From contig JBMORA010000045.1 in NCBI GenBank assembly GCA_049320885.1, positions 1-64,000 of the forward strand: a DNA stretch of 64,000 nucleotides, given 5' to 3'. The notes below the pieces were generated by a model. It saw only the letters and a list, made by a program, of their open reading frames with translations. It did no database searches and had not been told where the DNA came from. Positions 39,289-46,495 of the stretch are shown here, piece after piece. The stretch is from Thermodesulfobacteriota bacterium (lineage in GTDB: Bacteria > Desulfobacterota > Desulfobacteria > Desulfobacterales > SURF-7). Position 1 is the first letter of the stretch, and every line of letters starts with the position of its first letter. The position numbers and the translations under genes were made by a program.

Positions 39289-40104
39289 TCAGTTTTTCGC
39301 CTTTTTATAGTACCCCACGGCCTCCGGAAGATGCTCCTTGATTTTCCGGATCCGGGTCTCGTCCGACGGATGGGTGCTCAAAAATTCCGGCGGCTTGCCG
39401 CCGCCCGAACCGCCGGACATTCTGGTCCAGAAATCCACGGCTGCCTGGGGGTCGTATCCGGCCATGGCCATGAAGATCAATCCCAGGCGGTCGGCCTCGC
39501 CTTCGTGCAGCCGGCTATAGGGCAGAATCACCCCCACCTGGGAGCCCGCGCCGTAGGCGGTCATCCATAGCTGGCGGGTTTCTTCCGGCTTGTTGGCCAT
39601 GGCCGTGGAAAGGGCCACGCCGCCCAGCTGCACCAGAACTCCCTGGCTCATGCGCTCATCGCCGTGCCGGGCCACCGCATGGGCGATTTCATGTCCCATC
39701 ACCACGGCCAGACCGGTTTCGTCCTTTGCAATGGGCAGGATTCCGGAATATACCACCACTTTCCCGCCGGGCATGCACCAGGCGTTCACTTCCTTGCTTT
39801 CCACCAGGTTGAATTCCCAGGCATATCCCTTCAACAAATGGGACAATTTTTCTTGCGCCATGTAGCGCTCCACCGCGCTCTGAATTTTTTTCCCCACATT
39901 CCGGACCATCTTCACCTGCTTTTCGTCCTTGCTGACCGCATTGGACTTCAGGAACTCGCCGTATTGCTGGTAGCTCATGGACATCATGGTCGAGGCAGGC
40001 ACCAGATCGAGCTGCGTCCTTCCGGTCAACGGAACGGTGCTGCAGGCTGCCGCGAGGAACAGCCCCGGAAACAACAAGACCGTACGGAGAAATTTGGTGC
40101 TCAT
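39289..40104 (-). CDS. M48-family metallopeptidase lipoprotein
   Basis: LAAAC lipobox, NAWCMPGGK, GHEIAH, EADRLG, LSTHP. Confidence 0.93.
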   Translation of the reverse strand: MSTKFLRTVLLFPGLFLAAACSTVPLTGRTQLDLVPASTMMSMSYQQYGEFLKSNAVSKDEKQVKMVRNVGKKIQSAVERYMAQEKLSHLLKGYAWEFNLVESKEVNAWCMPGGKVVVYSGILPIAKDETGLAVVMGHEIAHAVARHGDERMSQGVLVQLGGVALSTAMANKPEETRQLWMTAYGAGSQVGVILPYSRLHEGEADRLGLIFMAMAGYDPQAAVDFWTRMSGGSGGGKPPEFLSTHPSDETRIRKIKEHLPEAVGYYKKAKN

Positions 40105-40385
40105 GTGCTGTCAACTCCTTTACCGCTATGATTTCATTTCATGCTGGTTGTCGGCTCACCGCCAGACTCTTATGTATCCAAGACAACGGCATTTGTAAAC
40201 CCGGACGCTCCCGAAGGGGCTGAAAAACCGTACGCGCCATCCCGGCGGTTTTTTCAAAAAAAATGCCGCGCGGAGCTTTACTTTTTCGATTTGATCATTG
40301 TGGTTCCATCCGGCGGAAGGTCGCCGGCGGCGGCTTTGTTTTATAAATACCACACGGTATCGATTTAATACACCTGTTTTACACG

Positions 40386-40752
40386 GGAAGGTGCCTCCTC
40401 TATCAAAAATCCAGGCCGGAGAACGCTCCGGGACACTGCGCGATGTATGTTTTTCGACCCATCACCTGCCGTCTTTTCGGTTTTTCCGTGACCCGGGATC
40501 GAATGGGCCGGGACAACCTTGCCGCCTGCCGAATCATCCGCCGGACCAGCTCCGCTCTTTTCGAAGCCGCCCGTTCATTTCAATCCGAAGCCCCTTGCTT
40601 GTCGGACATGGGGCTCCGCCTGTACTCCCTGGATCCGAATTCCGGTGACCGGTTGCTGCCCATCAACGAAGCCCTGGAGGCCGCCATCCGCCGCATGGGG
40701 CTGTACCTGCAGATATCCCATGGACGATTGCTGAGCGACCATACCGCAGCGT
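40386..40752 (+). pseudogene. 5'-truncated remnant of a YkgJ-family (CxxCxxCC) gene
   Basis: Frame reads GRCLLY...GHCAMYVFRPITCRLFGF. In-frame TAA at 40344, N-terminal Cys cluster absent, no stop of its own (runs into parA). Boundaries approximate. Confidence 0.6.
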
Positions 40753-40818
40753 ACGGAGGCAAAAACGGAATTCAAGATAAGAAACGAGGTCGATACAACA
40801 TATGGTATATCTTTACTA

Positions 40819-40847
40819 TTGACACACAATGGAGACCATATTACGGT
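40819..40847 (+). promoter_or_regulatory. Possible sigma70 promoter of the parA-CBM48 cassette
   Basis: TTGACA-N17-TACGGT in a locally AT-rich stretch. Confidence 0.4.
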
Positions 40848-40952
40848 ATCCCATCGGGTGATGTATTCAACAGCCGCGGCATCATCATCGGCCATTCCCC
40901 GGGCCGATGCAGACCGGTTTCAGCCGGAAGGACTCCACCAACCGGAGGCGCC

Positions 40953-42014
40953 ATGCGAATCATAGCGATATCGAATCAAAAAGGCGGATGCGGGAAAACC
41001 ACCACGGCGGTGAATCTGTCGGCCTGTCTGGCCCGGAAGGGGAAAAGCGTGCTGTTGATCGATATGGATCCCCAGGCCCATTCCTCCATCGCCCTGAACC
41101 TGGATGTAAAGCAACTTGAAACATCCGTCCGCGATGCCCTGGGGGGACCCGAAACCGGCCGGACCCGGATGGACGAAATCGTCGTTGCCGTCAGCGAGCA
41201 TCTCCATATCGCTCCGGCCGATATCACCCTGAGCGCCCTGGAACAACAGCTGGCCATGGTGCCGGGACGGGAAAACCGGCTCAAGGAAGCCATCGCCGGC
41301 ATGGATCGGGAATATGAATATGTCATCGTGGATTGCCCGCCCAGCCTGGGCCTGTTGACCTTCAACGCCCTGATCGCCGCCACGGAAATCATCGTGCCCC
41401 TGGAAATGAGCTTGTTTTCCCTGCATGGCGTCAGCCGGTTGCTGGAAATCATCGGACTGGTCCGGGAAAAGACCGGTCATGAGCCGCGGATCCGGATCCT
41501 GGCCACCATGGTTGACGATAGAACCAGAATATCGCGGGAAGTCCTGGCGGATATCGGAAGCCATTTTAAGGAGGCCCTCTTCGCCACCCGCATTCATTTT
41601 ACCGTCAAATTGAAGGAAGCCGCCAGTTTCGGCAAATCCATCGTCGATTACGGCAGGGACAGCCGGGGCCGGAGAGACTACCTGGCCCTGACGGAAGAAG
41701 TGATCGCACAAGATAGCCGGCCGGCATCCTCCCGGTTACGGGAAAAAAGCACCATCATTACCAGACAGTTCACGTTGGATGCCCCCCGGGCGGCCTCGGT
41801 GAAAATCGTCGGCACGTTCAACGACTGGACTCCTTCCGAGAAGTCCGCCATGGAACAACGGTCTGACGGCGTCTGGACAAAAGAACTCTCATTGACGCCG
41901 GGCGATTATCAATACCGGTTTCTGGTGGACGATGTCTGGACGGAAGACCACGCCAATCCCCATGCCGTGGACAACGCCTTCGGGGGAAAAAATTCCTGTA
42001 TCACCATCCGCTGA
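40953..42014 (+). CDS. ParA/Soj-family ATPase fused to a C-terminal CBM48/AMPK-beta-like glycogen-binding domain
   Basis: GGAGG RBS before ATG 40953; NQKGGCGKTTT, LIDMDPQ, VDCPPSLG; C-terminal VKIVGTFNDW...GVW...PGDYQYRFLVDDVW...GGKNS. Confidence 0.9.
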   Translation: MRIIAISNQKGGCGKTTTAVNLSACLARKGKSVLLIDMDPQAHSSIALNLDVKQLETSVRDALGGPETGRTRMDEIVVAVSEHLHIAPADITLSALEQQLAMVPGRENRLKEAIAGMDREYEYVIVDCPPSLGLLTFNALIAATEIIVPLEMSLFSLHGVSRLLEIIGLVREKTGHEPRIRILATMVDDRTRISREVLADIGSHFKEALFATRIHFTVKLKEAASFGKSIVDYGRDSRGRRDYLALTEEVIAQDSRPASSRLREKSTIITRQFTLDAPRAASVKIVGTFNDWTPSEKSAMEQRSDGVWTKELSLTPGDYQYRFLVDDVWTEDHANPHAVDNAFGGKNSCITIR

Positions 42015-42025
42015 AAAGGAAGGCC

Positions 42026-42454
42026 ATGGAAAACAAACGCCTCGGCAGAGGGCTGGAACAGATTTCCGACCTGTTTTTATCCACCGGGAAAGAACGGCCA
42101 TCCGCTCTTGATGGTGCCATGTTCGCGGATCCCGTCGATGAATCCGGGTCCGCCCCTCCGCCGGACGGGGAGAAGGAATCCGCGCCCCCTGATCCCCATG
42201 GTGACGGACTGGCGGCCGATCTGTGCGAGGTGGAGGAACAGGTGAGTGTCCGGAAGAACATCACCTTCCCGCTCCTGCCCGACGCCCGGGAAAAGATGTG
42301 GCGGTTGGTTTGCCGGTATCTGGAATCCGGTTACGGTATCAAGCGGATCGAGTTGATCAAAAGCAGCAGAAACGGCAAGCCCGGCCATCAAAAGACCACG
42401 GAAGAGATCGTCTGTATCGGCACCGAAGACCCGCCGCCCGTCATGAATTTTTAG
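42026..42454 (+). CDS. Small protein with an N-terminal ParB-type KRLGRGL peptide (putative ParA partner)
   Basis: AAGGAAGG RBS; 11 nt after the parA stop; MENKRLGRGLEQISDLFLS, an acidic/Pro linker and an unknown C-terminal domain. Confidence 0.8.
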   Translation: MENKRLGRGLEQISDLFLSTGKERPSALDGAMFADPVDESGSAPPPDGEKESAPPDPHGDGLAADLCEVEEQVSVRKNITFPLLPDAREKMWRLVCRYLESGYGIKRIELIKSSRNGKPGHQKTTEEIVCIGTEDPPPVMNF

Positions 42455-43706
42455 AACCGGCCGCAAGGGTCAGCCGCGTCATTTCATCCCCCCAGGCCAG
42501 CGCATCCCGGAAAGCCTTTCTGACCTTCCCACCGTCGAGTCCCAGATTTTGAATGGCTTTTTCCGCCGCGTCCCACTGGCCTTCCTCGATGATTTCCGAC
42601 AGTCGCAGGAGCGGAGCGTATTCATTGTTCGCATCCCGGCACAGGGCGGATTTCAGTTTGTCCTCCAGGGGCAGGTATTGGACGATTTCCGGCATGGGAC
42701 GGTTGATCATGGCGTCCAGCAGGGAGAACATTCCCAGCAGAAACAGGCTTTCCGGATTGAAGCCCCAGAAATCGTGGTCTCTTGCGATCTGTTCCAGGAA
42801 TTTGCCCCGCTGGGCTGACAGCACCACCAATTCCGAGCCTTTCTGGCTCTGGGCCATGTCGTTCAGCACCACGACCCGGACCCAGTTCCGCATTTTTTTC
42901 CAGCCCAGCATGTTGATGGCGTCCCGGATGGACTGGATCTTCTGACGAAAGCCATAGGCAGCGGAATTGATATAGGACAGCAACCGGAAACTGATGGAAA
43001 CATCCGTGCGGATGGCCTCGCTCAGTCGTTCCAGATCAGGGTCTTCCTGTTCGATCAGACGCATCAACTGCAGGCGGCTCACCTGATTGGACGATAGTTT
43101 TTTCACGCTGATCTGTTCCGGCTGCTTGAAATATCCGCCCTGAAACAACTGAAAACCCACATCCTTGCAGACCGTCATCAGGGGCTGGCTCTGGACCTGT
43201 CCGGCCAGGGACAGACAACCGAAGGGCTCGATCTTTTTCTGGAATCCGTTCAATTCATCCCGGTTTTGTCCGGCGACTTCCACATGGACGATGTCCGCGA
43301 TTTTCAACAGGGATTCAGGCGTGGCTCCACCCGCCGCCTCCACCACCAGCATATATCCGTCGGCTTTCAATTGGGCGAGGGTGTCCTCGAATCCCGGTTC
43401 GCCGGCGGGGCGGCCGAGAATTTTCACCGCCGTCCGCTTCGGTGGCAGCGCATACGGCAGTTTGTCCAATACATTTTTGGCCGAGAACCGGACCATGATT
43501 TTCCGTCCGTGGTCCAGCATCTGCTGCAGGCCCATGTAAGTGCCGGAAGCCAGGGTGCCGGCCACCGTGTCCGTATCGAACTCGACGGCCGCGAGCTGTC
43601 CGGCTCCGGAAACCGCGAAGAGTTCATATCCCCACAGATGCTGTTCGGCGTCGAAAATCGGCTGTCGCGCCAGGGATAATGCTGCGACCTCTTTCCCAGT
43701 TGTCAT
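42441..43706 (-). CDS. EAL-like + HDOD domain protein
   Basis: ARQPIFD...GYELF, LFQGGYF, D...RLLSYINSAAYG, FLLGMFSLLDA. Confidence 0.88.
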   Translation of the reverse strand: MTTGKEVAALSLARQPIFDAEQHLWGYELFAVSGAGQLAAVEFDTDTVAGTLASGTYMGLQQMLDHGRKIMVRFSAKNVLDKLPYALPPKRTAVKILGRPAGEPGFEDTLAQLKADGYMLVVEAAGGATPESLLKIADIVHVEVAGQNRDELNGFQKKIEPFGCLSLAGQVQSQPLMTVCKDVGFQLFQGGYFKQPEQISVKKLSSNQVSRLQLMRLIEQEDPDLERLSEAIRTDVSISFRLLSYINSAAYGFRQKIQSIRDAINMLGWKKMRNWVRVVVLNDMAQSQKGSELVVLSAQRGKFLEQIARDHDFWGFNPESLFLLGMFSLLDAMINRPMPEIVQYLPLEDKLKSALCRDANNEYAPLLRLSEIIEEGQWDAAEKAIQNLGLDGGKVRKAFRDALAWGDEMTRLTLAAGSKNS

Positions 43707-43756: not shown

Positions 43757-46255
43757 TTACAGCGGCAGGGGTTTCATCCCCCAGATATTTCTGGCGTACT
43801 CCATCACCGCCCGGTCACTGGAGAATTTCCCCATGTTGGCGGTGTTCAGGATGGACCGTCGCGCCCAGTCCTCCTGGTTCTGATAGGCCAGGCTGACCTG
43901 TTCCTGGGCCTCGATGTAGGAACGGTAATCCGCCAGCACCATGTAATAGTCCCCGTGATCCATCAACGACTGGATGATCGGTGAAAACAGCCAGGGTTCG
44001 GCGGGGGAGAAATACCCGTTGTTGATCATTTCCAGCACCTTTCTCAGTTCCGCATCCTGGCGATAGATATCCCGCGGGTTGTATCCGCCGCCGCGCATCT
44101 GGTCCACTTCATGGGATTTCATCCCGAAAATGAAGATATTGTCCGGCCCCACCTCCTCGAGAATTTCGACATTGGCCCCATCCATGGTGCCGATGGTCAA
44201 GGCGCCGTTGAGGGCGAATTTCATGTTGCCCGTGCCCGACGCTTCCATGCCGGCGGTGGAAATCTGCTCTGACAGCTCCGCGGCCGGAATAATCTTTTCC
44301 GCCTGGGAAATGCAATAGTTCGGCAGGAAAATAACCTTCAGTTTGCCACGCACTTCCGGATCACCGTTGATTTTTTCGGCAATGGAATTGATCAGTTTGA
44401 TGATCAGCTTGGCGCGATAATAAGCGGGCGCCGCCTTGCCTGCGAAAATCACCGTGCGGGGGGCAATGGGGGCCGTCGAACCCTCGATGATCCGGCAGTA
44501 GAGAGTGATCACATGCAGGGCGTTCAGGAGCTGCCGCTTGTATTCGTGGATCCGTTTGACATGCACATCGAACAGGGTATCCGGATTGACCCCCATCCCG
44601 GTTTTACGCAAAATATAGCGCGCCAGGCGTTTCTTGTTGTTGCGCTTCACCGCCAGCCAGGCGGAGCGGAACGCGGCGTCCCCGGCATACGGGATCAGCC
44701 GCTTCAACTGATCCAGCTCCGTGACCCATCCCGGGCCGATGGTCCCGGTGATCAGTTCCGACAGTTCCGGATTGGCCTGACGGAGCCAGCGCCGGGGGGT
44801 GATGCCGTTGGTGACGTTTTTCAGCTTGCCGGGAAACACCCGGTCGAATCCGCTGAACATGCCCTCTTTCAAGATGCGGCTGTGCAGCTCCGCCACCCCG
44901 TTCACCGAGTGGCTGCCGATGATGGCCAGATAGGCCATGCGCACTTTCTTGACATCGCCCTCCTGAATGATGGACAGCCGGGACAGCAACTCGGGCTGAT
45001 CCGGGTACCGCTGTTTGATGTCCTCCAGGAACCGGTGGTTGATCTCGTAGATGATTTCCAGATGCCGGGGCAACAGACGGCCGATCAGGGACACCGGCCA
45101 GGTCTCCAGGGCCTCGGGCATGACCGTATGATTCGTGTAGGCAAAGGTTCTGGTGCAGATCCCCCAGGCATCCTCCCATTCCAGCCCCTCCTCGTCGATG
45201 AGCAGGCGCATGCATTCCGGAATCGCGATGGCCGGGTGGGTGTCGTTCAGCTGGATGGCCACGTAATCCGGAAAATACACGAAGGACTGTTGCTGTTTCC
45301 GGTATCTCCGAAAAATGTCCTGCATGGTGGCGGAAACGAAAAAATATTGCTGCCGCAGCCTCAGGGTCCGGCCCTGCTCCTGCTCGTCACTGGGATACAG
45401 CACCTTGGAAATGGTCTCGCTCAGCACCTTGTTTTCCACGGCGCCGATATAGTTGCCCTGGTTGAAATAATCCAGGTTGAATTCCCGGCTCGATTTGGCG
45501 GTCCAGAGCCGCATGTTGGTGACAAAATCGTCGCCGTACCCGGGAATCAGGATGTCACAGGGCATGGCCATGACCCCTTCCGTATCCACCCAGCGGCAGC
45601 GCCTCCTGCCTTCCACATCGGTGTATATCTCCGAACGGCCGTAAAAACGCACGGTATACAGCTGTTCGCGCCGCTTGATTTCCCAGGGATTGCCGCGCCT
45701 CATCCAGTTGTCGCTCTGTTCCTGCTGGTAGCCGTTCACCAGTACCTGATGGAAGATGCCGTAATCGTAACGGATGCCGTAGCCGTAGCCCGGCAGACGC
45801 AAGCGCGCCATGGAATCCATATAGCAGGAGGCCAGCCGTCCCAATCCGCCGTTGCCCAACCCGGAATCCCACTCTTCCTCCTCGATGTCGTCCAGGTCGA
45901 ATCCGATGTCGCGGGTCGTATCCGCGGCCGCCTTTTCCATGCCGAGACTGATCAGGTAGTTCTTGAGAAAACGCCCGGGAAGAAATTCCAGGGAGAGATA
46001 ATAGACCCGTTTGGCGAGGCTGTCATAACAGGCCCGCTGGGTCTTGATCCATTTCTGAATCAGGCGTTCCCGCAGGCTGAAAGCCAGGCCGGTGAAACAG
46101 CTGTATCGGTTGGGCATATCCGGATCGCCGCCGAGGGTGGACAAAATATGACGCCGGATGTCCTCATTCAGATGCCGGATGTCTTCTTTCGGTCCGCCTG
46201 GCTCCGTCTTCCCGCCCGGCTCCATGGGGTTATCGGATGGTGAACGCTTGGGCAT
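43757..46255 (-). CDS. glgP: Glycogen/starch phosphorylase
   Basis: GLGNGGLGRLASC, QLNDTHP, KRIHEYKRQ, EASGTGNMKF (PLP Lys); start ATG 46255 with GGAGG RBS. Confidence 0.97.
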   Translation of the reverse strand: MPKRSPSDNPMEPGGKTEPGGPKEDIRHLNEDIRRHILSTLGGDPDMPNRYSCFTGLAFSLRERLIQKWIKTQRACYDSLAKRVYYLSLEFLPGRFLKNYLISLGMEKAAADTTRDIGFDLDDIEEEEWDSGLGNGGLGRLASCYMDSMARLRLPGYGYGIRYDYGIFHQVLVNGYQQEQSDNWMRRGNPWEIKRREQLYTVRFYGRSEIYTDVEGRRRCRWVDTEGVMAMPCDILIPGYGDDFVTNMRLWTAKSSREFNLDYFNQGNYIGAVENKVLSETISKVLYPSDEQEQGRTLRLRQQYFFVSATMQDIFRRYRKQQQSFVYFPDYVAIQLNDTHPAIAIPECMRLLIDEEGLEWEDAWGICTRTFAYTNHTVMPEALETWPVSLIGRLLPRHLEIIYEINHRFLEDIKQRYPDQPELLSRLSIIQEGDVKKVRMAYLAIIGSHSVNGVAELHSRILKEGMFSGFDRVFPGKLKNVTNGITPRRWLRQANPELSELITGTIGPGWVTELDQLKRLIPYAGDAAFRSAWLAVKRNNKKRLARYILRKTGMGVNPDTLFDVHVKRIHEYKRQLLNALHVITLYCRIIEGSTAPIAPRTVIFAGKAAPAYYRAKLIIKLINSIAEKINGDPEVRGKLKVIFLPNYCISQAEKIIPAAELSEQISTAGMEASGTGNMKFALNGALTIGTMDGANVEILEEVGPDNIFIFGMKSHEVDQMRGGGYNPRDIYRQDAELRKVLEMINNGYFSPAEPWLFSPIIQSLMDHGDYYMVLADYRSYIEAQEQVSLAYQNQEDWARRSILNTANMGKFSSDRAVMEYARNIWGMKPLPL

Positions 46256-46495
46256 GAATTGTCCTCCGGTGAAACGCAAGGGTCGGTTAGGGGTTTTCCG
46301 ATACGGGGGAGTCAAAACCGTCGGGCCATCAGGGGCTTTCCGGCAGTACGGCGCATCGGATATGGCGGCTTGAAGCCACCGGCGCCCGATCCGCGCCGCC
46401 GGCTTCAATTGTTGGTGTTGTATAATACTATATAGGGTATACGAATTCCACCGTTTGATCAAGAGGAAGATCAACAGAGGAAGAACAGCCGGCCT

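Follow-up and report, generated by a model that had tools for sequence, protein, structure and literature searches.

Bacteria are known to use ParA-type systems for DNA, carboxysomes, chemoreceptor arrays and division sites. In one of them, McdAB, it is the partner protein that binds the cargo. Outside this class, PhaM ties polyhydroxybutyrate granules to the nucleoid, by which they pass to both daughter cells; it is not known to be an ATPase or to have an activator. A literature search combining ParA with glycogen, carbohydrate-binding module (CBM) or cargo terms found no ParA-type system for a polysaccharide store. A fusion of ParA to a CBM has been listed, as the 'ParA-CBM system' ConB5 of Li, Burroughs and Aravind (bioRxiv 10.64898/2026.10.19.760177, 2026). 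ConB5 is described as sporadic across phyla and as elaborated either with an upstream membrane CBM protein or with an inactive second ParA plus an inactive restriction endonuclease (REase). Its immune role is inferred from 'rapid divergence of the CBM' and is, in the part of the preprint available to us, a prediction with no experiment. Here we analyse a gene pair in a 64,000-nucleotide stretch of a Thermodesulfobacteriota bacterium (contig JBMORA010000045.1 of assembly GCA_049320885.1, positions 1 to 64,000), hereafter the window. The first gene encodes a Soj-type ParA ATPase fused to a CBM of the AMPK-beta/CBM48 type (ParA-CBM) and the second a small partner with a ParB-type peptide. Together they may, in the tentative reading developed below, tether glycogen to the nucleoid. 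An earlier note on this DNA knew of no characterised system like it, which is still true for experiments; the fusion itself was already listed in the 2026 preprint, with the immune role predicted there.

The genes and their domain composition are certain. All open reading frames (ORFs), motifs and the 11-nt gap reported in the earlier note were found in the sequence. In the list below and throughout, ratios of nonsynonymous to synonymous substitution rates (dN/dS) come from one pair, the window against the orthologue in the same-genus genome G111, at a dS of ~0.7; pLDDT is the predicted local distance difference test score of the structure models.

40953..42014, + strand: ParA-CBM gene, 353 residues, a ParA ATPase of the Soj type with an AMPK-beta/CBM48 domain fused to it
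40953..41717, + strand: ParA/Soj-type ATPase domain, residues 1-255, with Walker A KGGCGKT, Motif 2 D37-x-D39 and Walker B D127
41718..41777, + strand: flexible linker of ParA-CBM, residues 256-275 (low pLDDT, low identity, dN/dS 0.57)
41778..42014, + strand: CBM48/AMPK-beta-type domain, residues 276-353 plus the stop codon (Pfam, PDB 1Z0N, residue conservation)
42026..42454, + strand: partner gene, 142 residues, starting 11 nt past the ParA-CBM stop
42026..42085, + strand: N-terminal peptide of the partner, residues 1-20, with the ParB-type ParA-binding motif
42086..42271, + strand: linker of the partner, residues 21-82, disordered, acidic and proline-rich (pLDDT, unalignable)
42272..42454, + strand: C-terminal alpha+beta domain of the partner plus the stop codon, with a helix at 85-100 and a hairpin at 104-115/124-134; of no known family

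The first domain of ParA-CBM is Soj-like. Pfam AAA_31 matches residues 1-174 (E 4.6e-53), and the closest solved structure is Myxococcus xanthus ParA (PDB 8RAY, E 5.8e-50, residues 2-254), followed by mycobacterial and Thermus Soj-type structures (T. thermophilus Soj, 1WCV, E 4.6e-43). MinD, McdA and plasmid ParA structures match far more weakly, the McdA structures 6NON and 6NOO at E ~7e-12 and over the N-terminal 170 residues only. The NCBIfam model ParA_partition (NF041546) gave 113.3 bits in two stretches, below its 180-bit cut-off. In the AlphaFold model (mean pLDDT 87.9) the protein forms two domains: the ATPase domain lies mostly at 85-97, the C-terminus is a beta-rich CBM, and residues 256-265 of the linker fall below 50.

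We followed conservation in 158 relatives, made up of 119 close proteins and 39 distant ones translated from loci. K10, K15, D37, D39 and R190 are invariant (158/158), position 221 is Lys or Arg in 157/158 and position 219 in 131/158. Besides the Walker A motif KGGCGKT (residues 10-16), the protein carries TMVDDRT (185-191) and TVKLKEA (217-223), in which the earlier note had seen basic residues at the positions that Soj uses for non-specific DNA binding. In agreement with this, K219, usually basic in relatives, stands in the alignment at the position of R238, a DNA-binding residue of M. xanthus ParA; the R238E variant of that protein does not bind DNA (PMC12462528, here as elsewhere according to the available part of the paper). 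We infer that R190, K219 and K221 would mediate non-specific DNA binding.

All 45 sequences of alignment A2 share three further residues, Cys13 in Walker A (Val in canonical ParA), His43 and His176, encoded at 40989-40991, 41079-41081 and 41478-41480. Cys13 and His43 were considered as signatures of the clade and dropped: the non-fused ParA loci all read DPQAH, but DPQAH was among the patterns used for the scan, so that the comparison is circular.

The second domain carries the sugar-binding pattern GTFNDW, YQYRF, DDVW and KNS within residues 287-348. Pfam AMPK1_CBM matches residues 280-352 (E 3e-12; 47 bits, cut-off 26.8), and this match is overlapped by CBM_48 (E 1.9e-5; 25.4 bits, cut-off 22.4) and, more weakly, by the pullulanase X25 domain. 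The domain also aligns to the AMPK beta-1 CBM structure (PDB 1Z0N, E 7e-6). The hidden Markov model scan thus recovered AAA_31, AMPK1_CBM and CBM_48 in the one protein and, with the structural alignment, supports the ParA-CBM48 composition that had been read from the sequence. Three residues of AMPK beta-1 bind glycogen according to mutagenesis, W100, K126 and W133 (reviewed in PMC6274970, in the part available to us), and they align with W292, R322 and W329 of ParA-CBM. W292 is present in 158/158 relatives, Arg or Lys at 322 in 155/158 and W329 in 157/158; G344 and N347 are kept in 157/158 and 148/158, respectively. The alpha-glucan-binding site of the CBM48 domain therefore appears intact. 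Compared with the AMPK beta CBM and the CBM48 enzymes, the domain shares the sequence family and the glycogen-binding residues (PMC6274970) but sits on a P-loop ATPase, not on a kinase scaffold or a GH13 enzyme, and has Arg in place of K126.

Elsewhere in the same genome, a stand-alone small AMPK-beta-type CBM48 protein is encoded at C64:100892-101149 on the - strand (locus L081 1498-1890; AMPK1_CBM E 7e-15). It contains hardly anything beyond that domain. Its pattern, FNQW, YEYKF, DGQW and TNS, is similar to that of ParA-CBM, and it would give the cell a second glycogen-binding module in the cytoplasm.

The partner opens with a ParB-type ParA-binding motif (LGRGLEQISDLFLS), which reads L6-G-R8-G-L10-x-x-I13-x-x-x-F17-L-S. 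Alignment A1, which holds ten partners collected from loci, shows no variation at L6, G7, R8, G9, I13 and F17, and the genome's own ParB has the same core, ALGRGLDALF. The stretch L6-G-R8-G-L10-x-x-I13 corresponds to L11-G-R13-G-L15-x-x-L18 of M. xanthus ParB, where the motif (residues 11-19) is L11-G-R13-G-L15-x-x-L18-I19 and ATPase stimulation requires R13 (PMC12462528). The 'LGRGL activator protein' of the earlier note does carry a ParB-type motif. In M. xanthus, ParA binding takes two juxtaposed ParB peptides (PMC12462528), and because of this we read the C-terminal domain of the partner as a dimerisation module, which would present two peptides to the two symmetric pockets of the ParA dimer.

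Beyond its peptide the partner resembles little that is catalogued. It has no Pfam or NCBIfam match, and a word-indexed search found only three relatives. With a profile of the ten partners of A1 against 1.84 billion proteins, 134 cluster representatives were recovered at E<=1e-3 and 80 at E<=1e-10. Their common traits are an N-terminal M-x-x-K-x-L-G-R-G-L-x-x-I-x-x-x-F-L-S, an unalignable spacer and a C-terminal domain of ~65 residues, the last being conserved in A1 as well as in the 134 representatives. In the predicted model, residues 18-82 are disordered (pLDDT <50) and the C-terminal domain lies at ~80-88. Values of dN/dS are 0.06 for residues 1-20, 0.97 for 21-66 and 0.32 for 67-142; the spacer of ~60 residues is under no detectable constraint. 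In a fold search (VIA-align, 48,161 chains) no match reached Z 5 or rose above noise, the highest Z being 4.9, and a search of the ESM Atlas with the partner gave no usable match by features, its structural rows being all below threshold.

Most economically, these features suggest an ATP-driven ParA switch by which glycogen particles would be tethered to the nucleoid or distributed over it, a reading that we favour while placing it a little short of an even chance. On binding ATP, ParA-CBM would dimerise, and the dimer would bind nucleoid DNA non-specifically via R190, K219 and K221 while its two CBM48 domains gripped glycogen particles with avidity. A dimer of the partner would then dock at the ParA dimer interface and trigger ATP hydrolysis, upon which the tether would dissolve and re-form elsewhere on the nucleoid. 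Over repeated cycles the granules would spread over the nucleoid instead of staying polar, and both daughters would inherit glycogen.

Such a device would resemble McdA/McdB, in which a nucleoid ParA-type ATPase and a small, partly disordered partner position a non-DNA cargo, but would differ from it in having the cargo-binding module on the ATPase and an ATPase much closer to Soj. With PhaM it would share the tie of a storage granule to the nucleoid for inheritance by the daughter cells.

A different logic, closer to MinD, would take glycogen itself as the surface: the CBM48 pair would replace the membrane-targeting helix, and the partner, or a ligand of its C-terminal domain, would be what is positioned or released. 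The layout lends itself to this, with an ATPase that, like MinD, bears its surface-binding module at the C-terminus, and a small activator made, like MinE, of an N-terminal activating peptide and a helix-plus-hairpin domain; MinE topological-specificity domains even occur among the weak fold matches of the partner. Their Z of 3.3, however, lies within the noise of that search. ParA-CBM moreover has no amphipathic membrane helix, its ATPase is Soj-like (E 5.8e-50 to 8RAY against 1e-14 to 1e-7 for the weak MinD matches), and the DNA-binding basic residues are kept. We hold this explanation to be very unlikely.

ParABS, represented by M. xanthus ParA (8RAY), is among the closest known systems. 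The two are alike in the ATPase fold, the signature lysine, the basic DNA-binding position and a mostly kept hydrophobic pocket for ParB: L150/L152/L155/L187 of M. xanthus ParA are retained as L132/L134/F137/L169, and L192 is changed to T174. The partner, likewise, begins with the same L-G-R-G-L-x-x-hydrophobic motif as ParB. It differs in having no ParB_N/CTPase, helix-turn-helix or recognisable DNA-binding domain, and the ATPase differs by its CBM48 tail, an altered arginine pocket and His for the Motif-2 Asn. The last two are the first of a series of observations, continued in the following paragraphs, that weigh against nucleoid tethering. The arginine-receiving pocket Y81/E82/D110/E117 of M. 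xanthus ParA reads R60/D61/T92/Q99 in ParA-CBM, and of the Motif 2 catalytic residues D58, D60 and N64 (PMC12462528) the Asn is replaced by His43. The partner, furthermore, has no recognisable cargo domain, which leaves no obvious way for an activator gradient to form on the cargo.

The link to glycogen itself holds in the window's own clade and is not general. In the order, which we sampled with 201 genomes from 89 families, a glycosyltransferase family 5 (GT5) synthase (E<=1e-60) is found in 12/12 carriers of the fusion against 135/189 non-carriers, and the curated GlgA cut-off is passed by 7/12 carriers against 17/189 non-carriers; these counts are not independent, because the carriers, being kin, fall in six genera only. 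The window's own assembly, 98% complete, holds glgC-glgA at C27:37946-40630 and a second GT5 synthase on C9, adjoining a CBM48/GH13 enzyme. On the metagenome contig L115 (1-2508), whose fusion is of the small-partner type and 50% identical, ParA-CBM and a 180-residue partner are followed by a GT5 starch/glycogen synthase that starts 2 nt past the partner stop, with GGAGG within the last codons of the partner gene. The synthase ORF on this contig has only 291 residues, perhaps through truncation or a frameshift. The gene immediately upstream of the fusion in G181 codes for a GH15 glucoamylase, and a sugar ABC transporter is encoded nearby.

On the opposite side, adjacency to glycogen genes is rare once more loci are included. 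By tblastn with seven glycogen-enzyme queries and with non-fused ParA loci of similar size as controls, glycogen genes were found near the fusion in 3/44 loci of named genomes (two glgP genes in the window's genus and the GH15 gene of G181) versus 1/45 control loci, and in 1/23 further metagenome loci. The earlier note had placed the pair next to glgP; the gene is indeed one gene away here and syntenic in the genus, and this neighbourhood is confined to the genus. As for co-occurrence with glg genes, which the note had proposed to check, it extends to all 12 carriers of the order but, over all phyla, only to the 29/44 carrier genomes with a GT5 synthase; 15/44 have none at E<=1e-30. For the wider family, this comes close to a frequent occurrence of the fusion in genomes lacking glycogen synthesis, which the note had named as evidence against its own proposal. 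Of these fifteen, nine have a GH13 enzyme, four a phosphorylase and six none of the three, eleven being without phosphorylase; all are metagenome-assembled genomes of unstated completeness, mostly bins with the pseudo-ParA form (see below) labelled Myxococcota or Deltaproteobacteria.

Part of this pattern would also suit a regulator of glycogen metabolism or energy state. The ATP-bound dimer would then coat glycogen bivalently and gate the access of GlgP or synthase, or report glycogen status as the AMPK beta CBM does; there would be no positioning on the nucleoid and the partner would only set turnover. The AMPK-beta type of the CBM speaks for it, as do the glgP gene close by in the genus, the synthase in the L115 operon, the GH15 gene upstream in G181, the FBA, PFK or enolase genes near other copies and the missing cargo-binding domain of the partner. 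The conserved basic residues of the DNA face, needless in a pure metabolic regulator, argue otherwise, and this explanation shares the difficulty that adjacency to glycogen genes is rare overall and that some carriers show no glycogen genes. We consider it unlikely.

The distribution of the fusion is patchy, which adds to the points against tethering. The full-length fusion is present in 12/201 genomes of the order, in 6/89 families, and is missing from G034, a sister genus in the same family represented by a 97% complete genome. The best 120 protein matches all carry AMPK1_CBM and are 53-75% identical to the window protein; those with a named source are labelled Desulfobacterales or Deltaproteobacteria. 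With one genome kept per species, 35/80 kept loci match the ParA-CBM query end to end; by record titles they belong to Desulfobacterota, Omnitrophota, Nitrospirota, Myxococcota, Planctomycetota, Acidobacteriota, Latescibacterota, Krumholzibacteriales and Spirochaetaceae-labelled bins.

The peptide-bearing partner follows the fusion widely, and what comes after the peptide varies. We scored as downstream partner a co-directional ORF starting -60 to +250 nt from the fusion stop and containing [LI]..[IVFLY]...F.[SP] in its first 70 residues. Such an ORF was found at 34 of the 66 fusion loci with enough downstream DNA, versus 62/3691 control ORFs; for true partners 34 is a lower bound, because the pattern misses at least three true partners (L101, L136 and L137). 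The domain after the peptide varies by lineage: the small alpha+beta form makes up the class of 50-75% identity to the window, whereas the class of 40-45% identity has a Walker-A-less, ParA-like partner of 250-330 residues, often followed by a gene of ~205 residues. A third form, of ~200-220 residues, is nuclease (REase)-like by motif only, and at other loci a Lys-rich or small membrane protein follows the fusion instead. In the metagenome scan, for which overly general patterns were used, 2/80 kept loci were of the small-partner type.

The next gene at several Planctomycetota- or Omnitrophota-type loci (L023, L034, L140, L146, L171 and L183) encodes a small membrane protein of ~105-120 residues (...EGKIFAILAYLSILCIIPL...). 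At L017-L019, L129 and L148, it encodes a Lys-rich protein ending ...NIVGIVTHYFPRVKAA. In G047 (L103 9024-10383) the CBM is cut short, the match ending at query residue 332 and AMPK1_CBM covering 6-61 of its 85 positions, and the 85-residue ORF downstream has only a garbled N-terminal motif; this is probably a decaying copy.

The pair is also quicker to change than its surroundings. Amino acid identities of the window proteins to their orthologues in the two other genomes of the genus, G197 and G111, are:

ParA-CBM: 57% to G197, 75% to G111
partner: 49% to G197, 57% to G111
canonical ParA: 88% to G197, 88% to G111
ParB: 78% to G197, 84% to G111
GlgP: 83% to G197, 83% to G111
M48 peptidase: 78% to G197, 82% to G111
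HDOD protein: 66% to G197, 84% to G111

The pair thus evolves two to three times faster than the housekeeping neighbours, though under purifying selection, and this too tells against tethering; such a rate would be expected of an accessory system and counts as one argument for an immune role. Within ParA-CBM, mean pairwise identity is 0.76 for the ATPase domain, 0.70 for the CBM and 0.47 for the linker among close relatives, and 0.50, 0.455 and 0.19, respectively, among distant ones. The ATPase domain has a dN/dS of 0.17 and the CBM one of 0.27, both below the value for the linker. On these figures the CBM evolves only slightly faster than the ATPase domain.

An immune sensor, anti-phage or anti-plasmid, is what the ConB5 proposal would make of the family: the CBM would sense a carbohydrate signal of infection or the depletion of a polysaccharide, and ParA would multimerise to limit infection. 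The window protein has the same architecture as ConB5, ParA with a C-terminal AMPK1_CBM. Neither elaboration is found in the window, and the 142-residue partner with its ParB-type peptide is not mentioned in the part of the preprint available to us; the pseudo-ParA form, one of the elaborations, does occur in more distant relatives of the window protein. An immune role is in line with the sporadic distribution, with the pair outpacing housekeeping genes, with the exchange of the C-terminal part of the partner between lineages (pseudo-ParA, REase-like by motif, Lys-rich and small membrane proteins), with the HepT/MNT and MazE toxin-antitoxin genes near the G181 copy and with the many carriers that have no glycogen synthase. 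Yet the CBM's rapid divergence, on which the proposal relies, is not borne out by our counts: the domain diverges just slightly more than the ATPase domain, its contact residues are nearly invariant and its dN/dS is low. There is no effector domain, and PADLOC gave only P-loop-level matches for ParA-CBM and none for the partner, the HDOD protein and two type II partner genes. No defence island was seen around the 11 other copies in the order; the neighbours are mostly housekeeping genes, such as those for ATP synthase, Fur and ClpB in G191, FBA, PFK and CdaA in G198, enolase and DnaJ in G138 and UvrA-like proteins in G165. Synteny, finally, is stable across the genus despite copies diverged to 57% identity. 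We judge an immune role to be quite unlikely, somewhat more so than metabolic regulation.

Returning to glycogen tethering, one locus bears on how a target might be specified. G191, which also carries the CBM fusion, has a paralogous pair (L110 2971-4371, G191:C19) in which a ParA of 342 residues with KGGCGKT and DPQAH ends in a disordered acidic tail where the fusion has its CBM, and is followed by a 105-residue partner of the same family (MEKKSLGRGIQEISNIFLS...). Since the same partner family here serves a ParA with an acidic tail and no CBM, this suggests that the C-terminal tail of the ATPase is an exchangeable targeting module specifying the target. A similar tailed ParA is found in L111 (G165). 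In its full form, our proposal is of a first ParA/MinD system for polysaccharide granules, of inverted design, with the cargo module on the ATPase and a minimal dimeric activator, with an exchangeable tail and with tethering gated by the level of ATP, because only the ATP-bound dimer would offer two CBM48 domains together with a DNA-binding face. This we put forward with more doubt than the tethering itself, as a possibility somewhat on the improbable side.

The remaining features of the locus are as follows.

40944..40948, + strand: Shine-Dalgarno sequence GGAGG of the ParA-CBM gene, four bases 5' of the ATG at 40953, read from the sequence
42016..42023, + strand: purine-rich Shine-Dalgarno-like sequence AAGGAAGG of the partner gene, within the 11-nt gap, read from the sequence
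42441..43706, - strand: convergent HDOD-domain gene (Pfam HDOD E 3.1e-17), its 3' end overlapping the partner gene by 14 nt
43757..46474, - strand: glgP, glycogen phosphorylase (Pfam Phosphorylase 1093 bits)

The two genes of the pair probably form an operon and are probably translationally coupled. A promoter scan of 40050-42700 gave 0 promoter-like sites, and terminator-like sites numbered 3 versus 3.2 expected. The HDOD gene sits between the partner gene and glgP, and an M48 peptidase gene lies upstream of ParA-CBM in divergent orientation. The N-terminal half of the HDOD protein has no Pfam match of its own and resembles a degenerate EAL domain (ARQPIFD...GYELF). The listed TTG is probably not the true start of glgP, which should lie further downstream, since Pfam matches the protein only from residue 189 on.

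The start of ParA-CBM needs a comment, as its frame is open back to 40443, which gives a protein of 523 residues, and the protein collection carries that form (P0003). We rejected this form as a genuine N-terminal extension: the extra 170 residues are an in-frame remnant of a ykgJ-like CxxCxxCC gene (window 40386-40751, + strand), to which no more than residues 78-199 of the intact homologue in G111 can be aligned, at 55% identity. The remnant runs into ParA-CBM with no stop codon between them, and gene callers consequently report the long protein. The relatives begin at MRII, matching the ATG at 40953.

The three genomes of the genus (window, G111 and G197) all have the syntenic order glgP-HDOD-partner-ParA-CBM. 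G197 shares the longer order thiE-thiC-...-glgP-HDOD-partner-ParA-CBM-...-response regulator-histidine kinase, and G111 the core glgP-HDOD-partner-ParA-CBM-ykgJ-M48; the HDOD gene is present in L099, 84% identical over 420 residues by tblastn. The separate canonical parAB that the earlier note had wished to see confirmed is present in the same genome, as a parA-parB pair at C27:92104-93298 with the genome's only ParB_N at C27:92104-92373.

The placement and inheritance of bacterial glycogen granules is an open question in the field, and the ParA-CBM family sets an inference of cell organisation against one of immunity for an uncharacterised clade of ParA proteins. Were the immune role true, a defence sensor would be built on a conserved glycogen-binding site, which would itself be unusual. 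If glycogen tethering is true, it would give ParA systems a new class of cargo and a new design, with the cargo module on the ATPase, in a compact system of two proteins open to reconstitution from these together with glycogen, DNA and ATP. Should tethering also be gated by ATP, the inheritance of the carbon store, and access to it, would be linked to the energy state of the cell.

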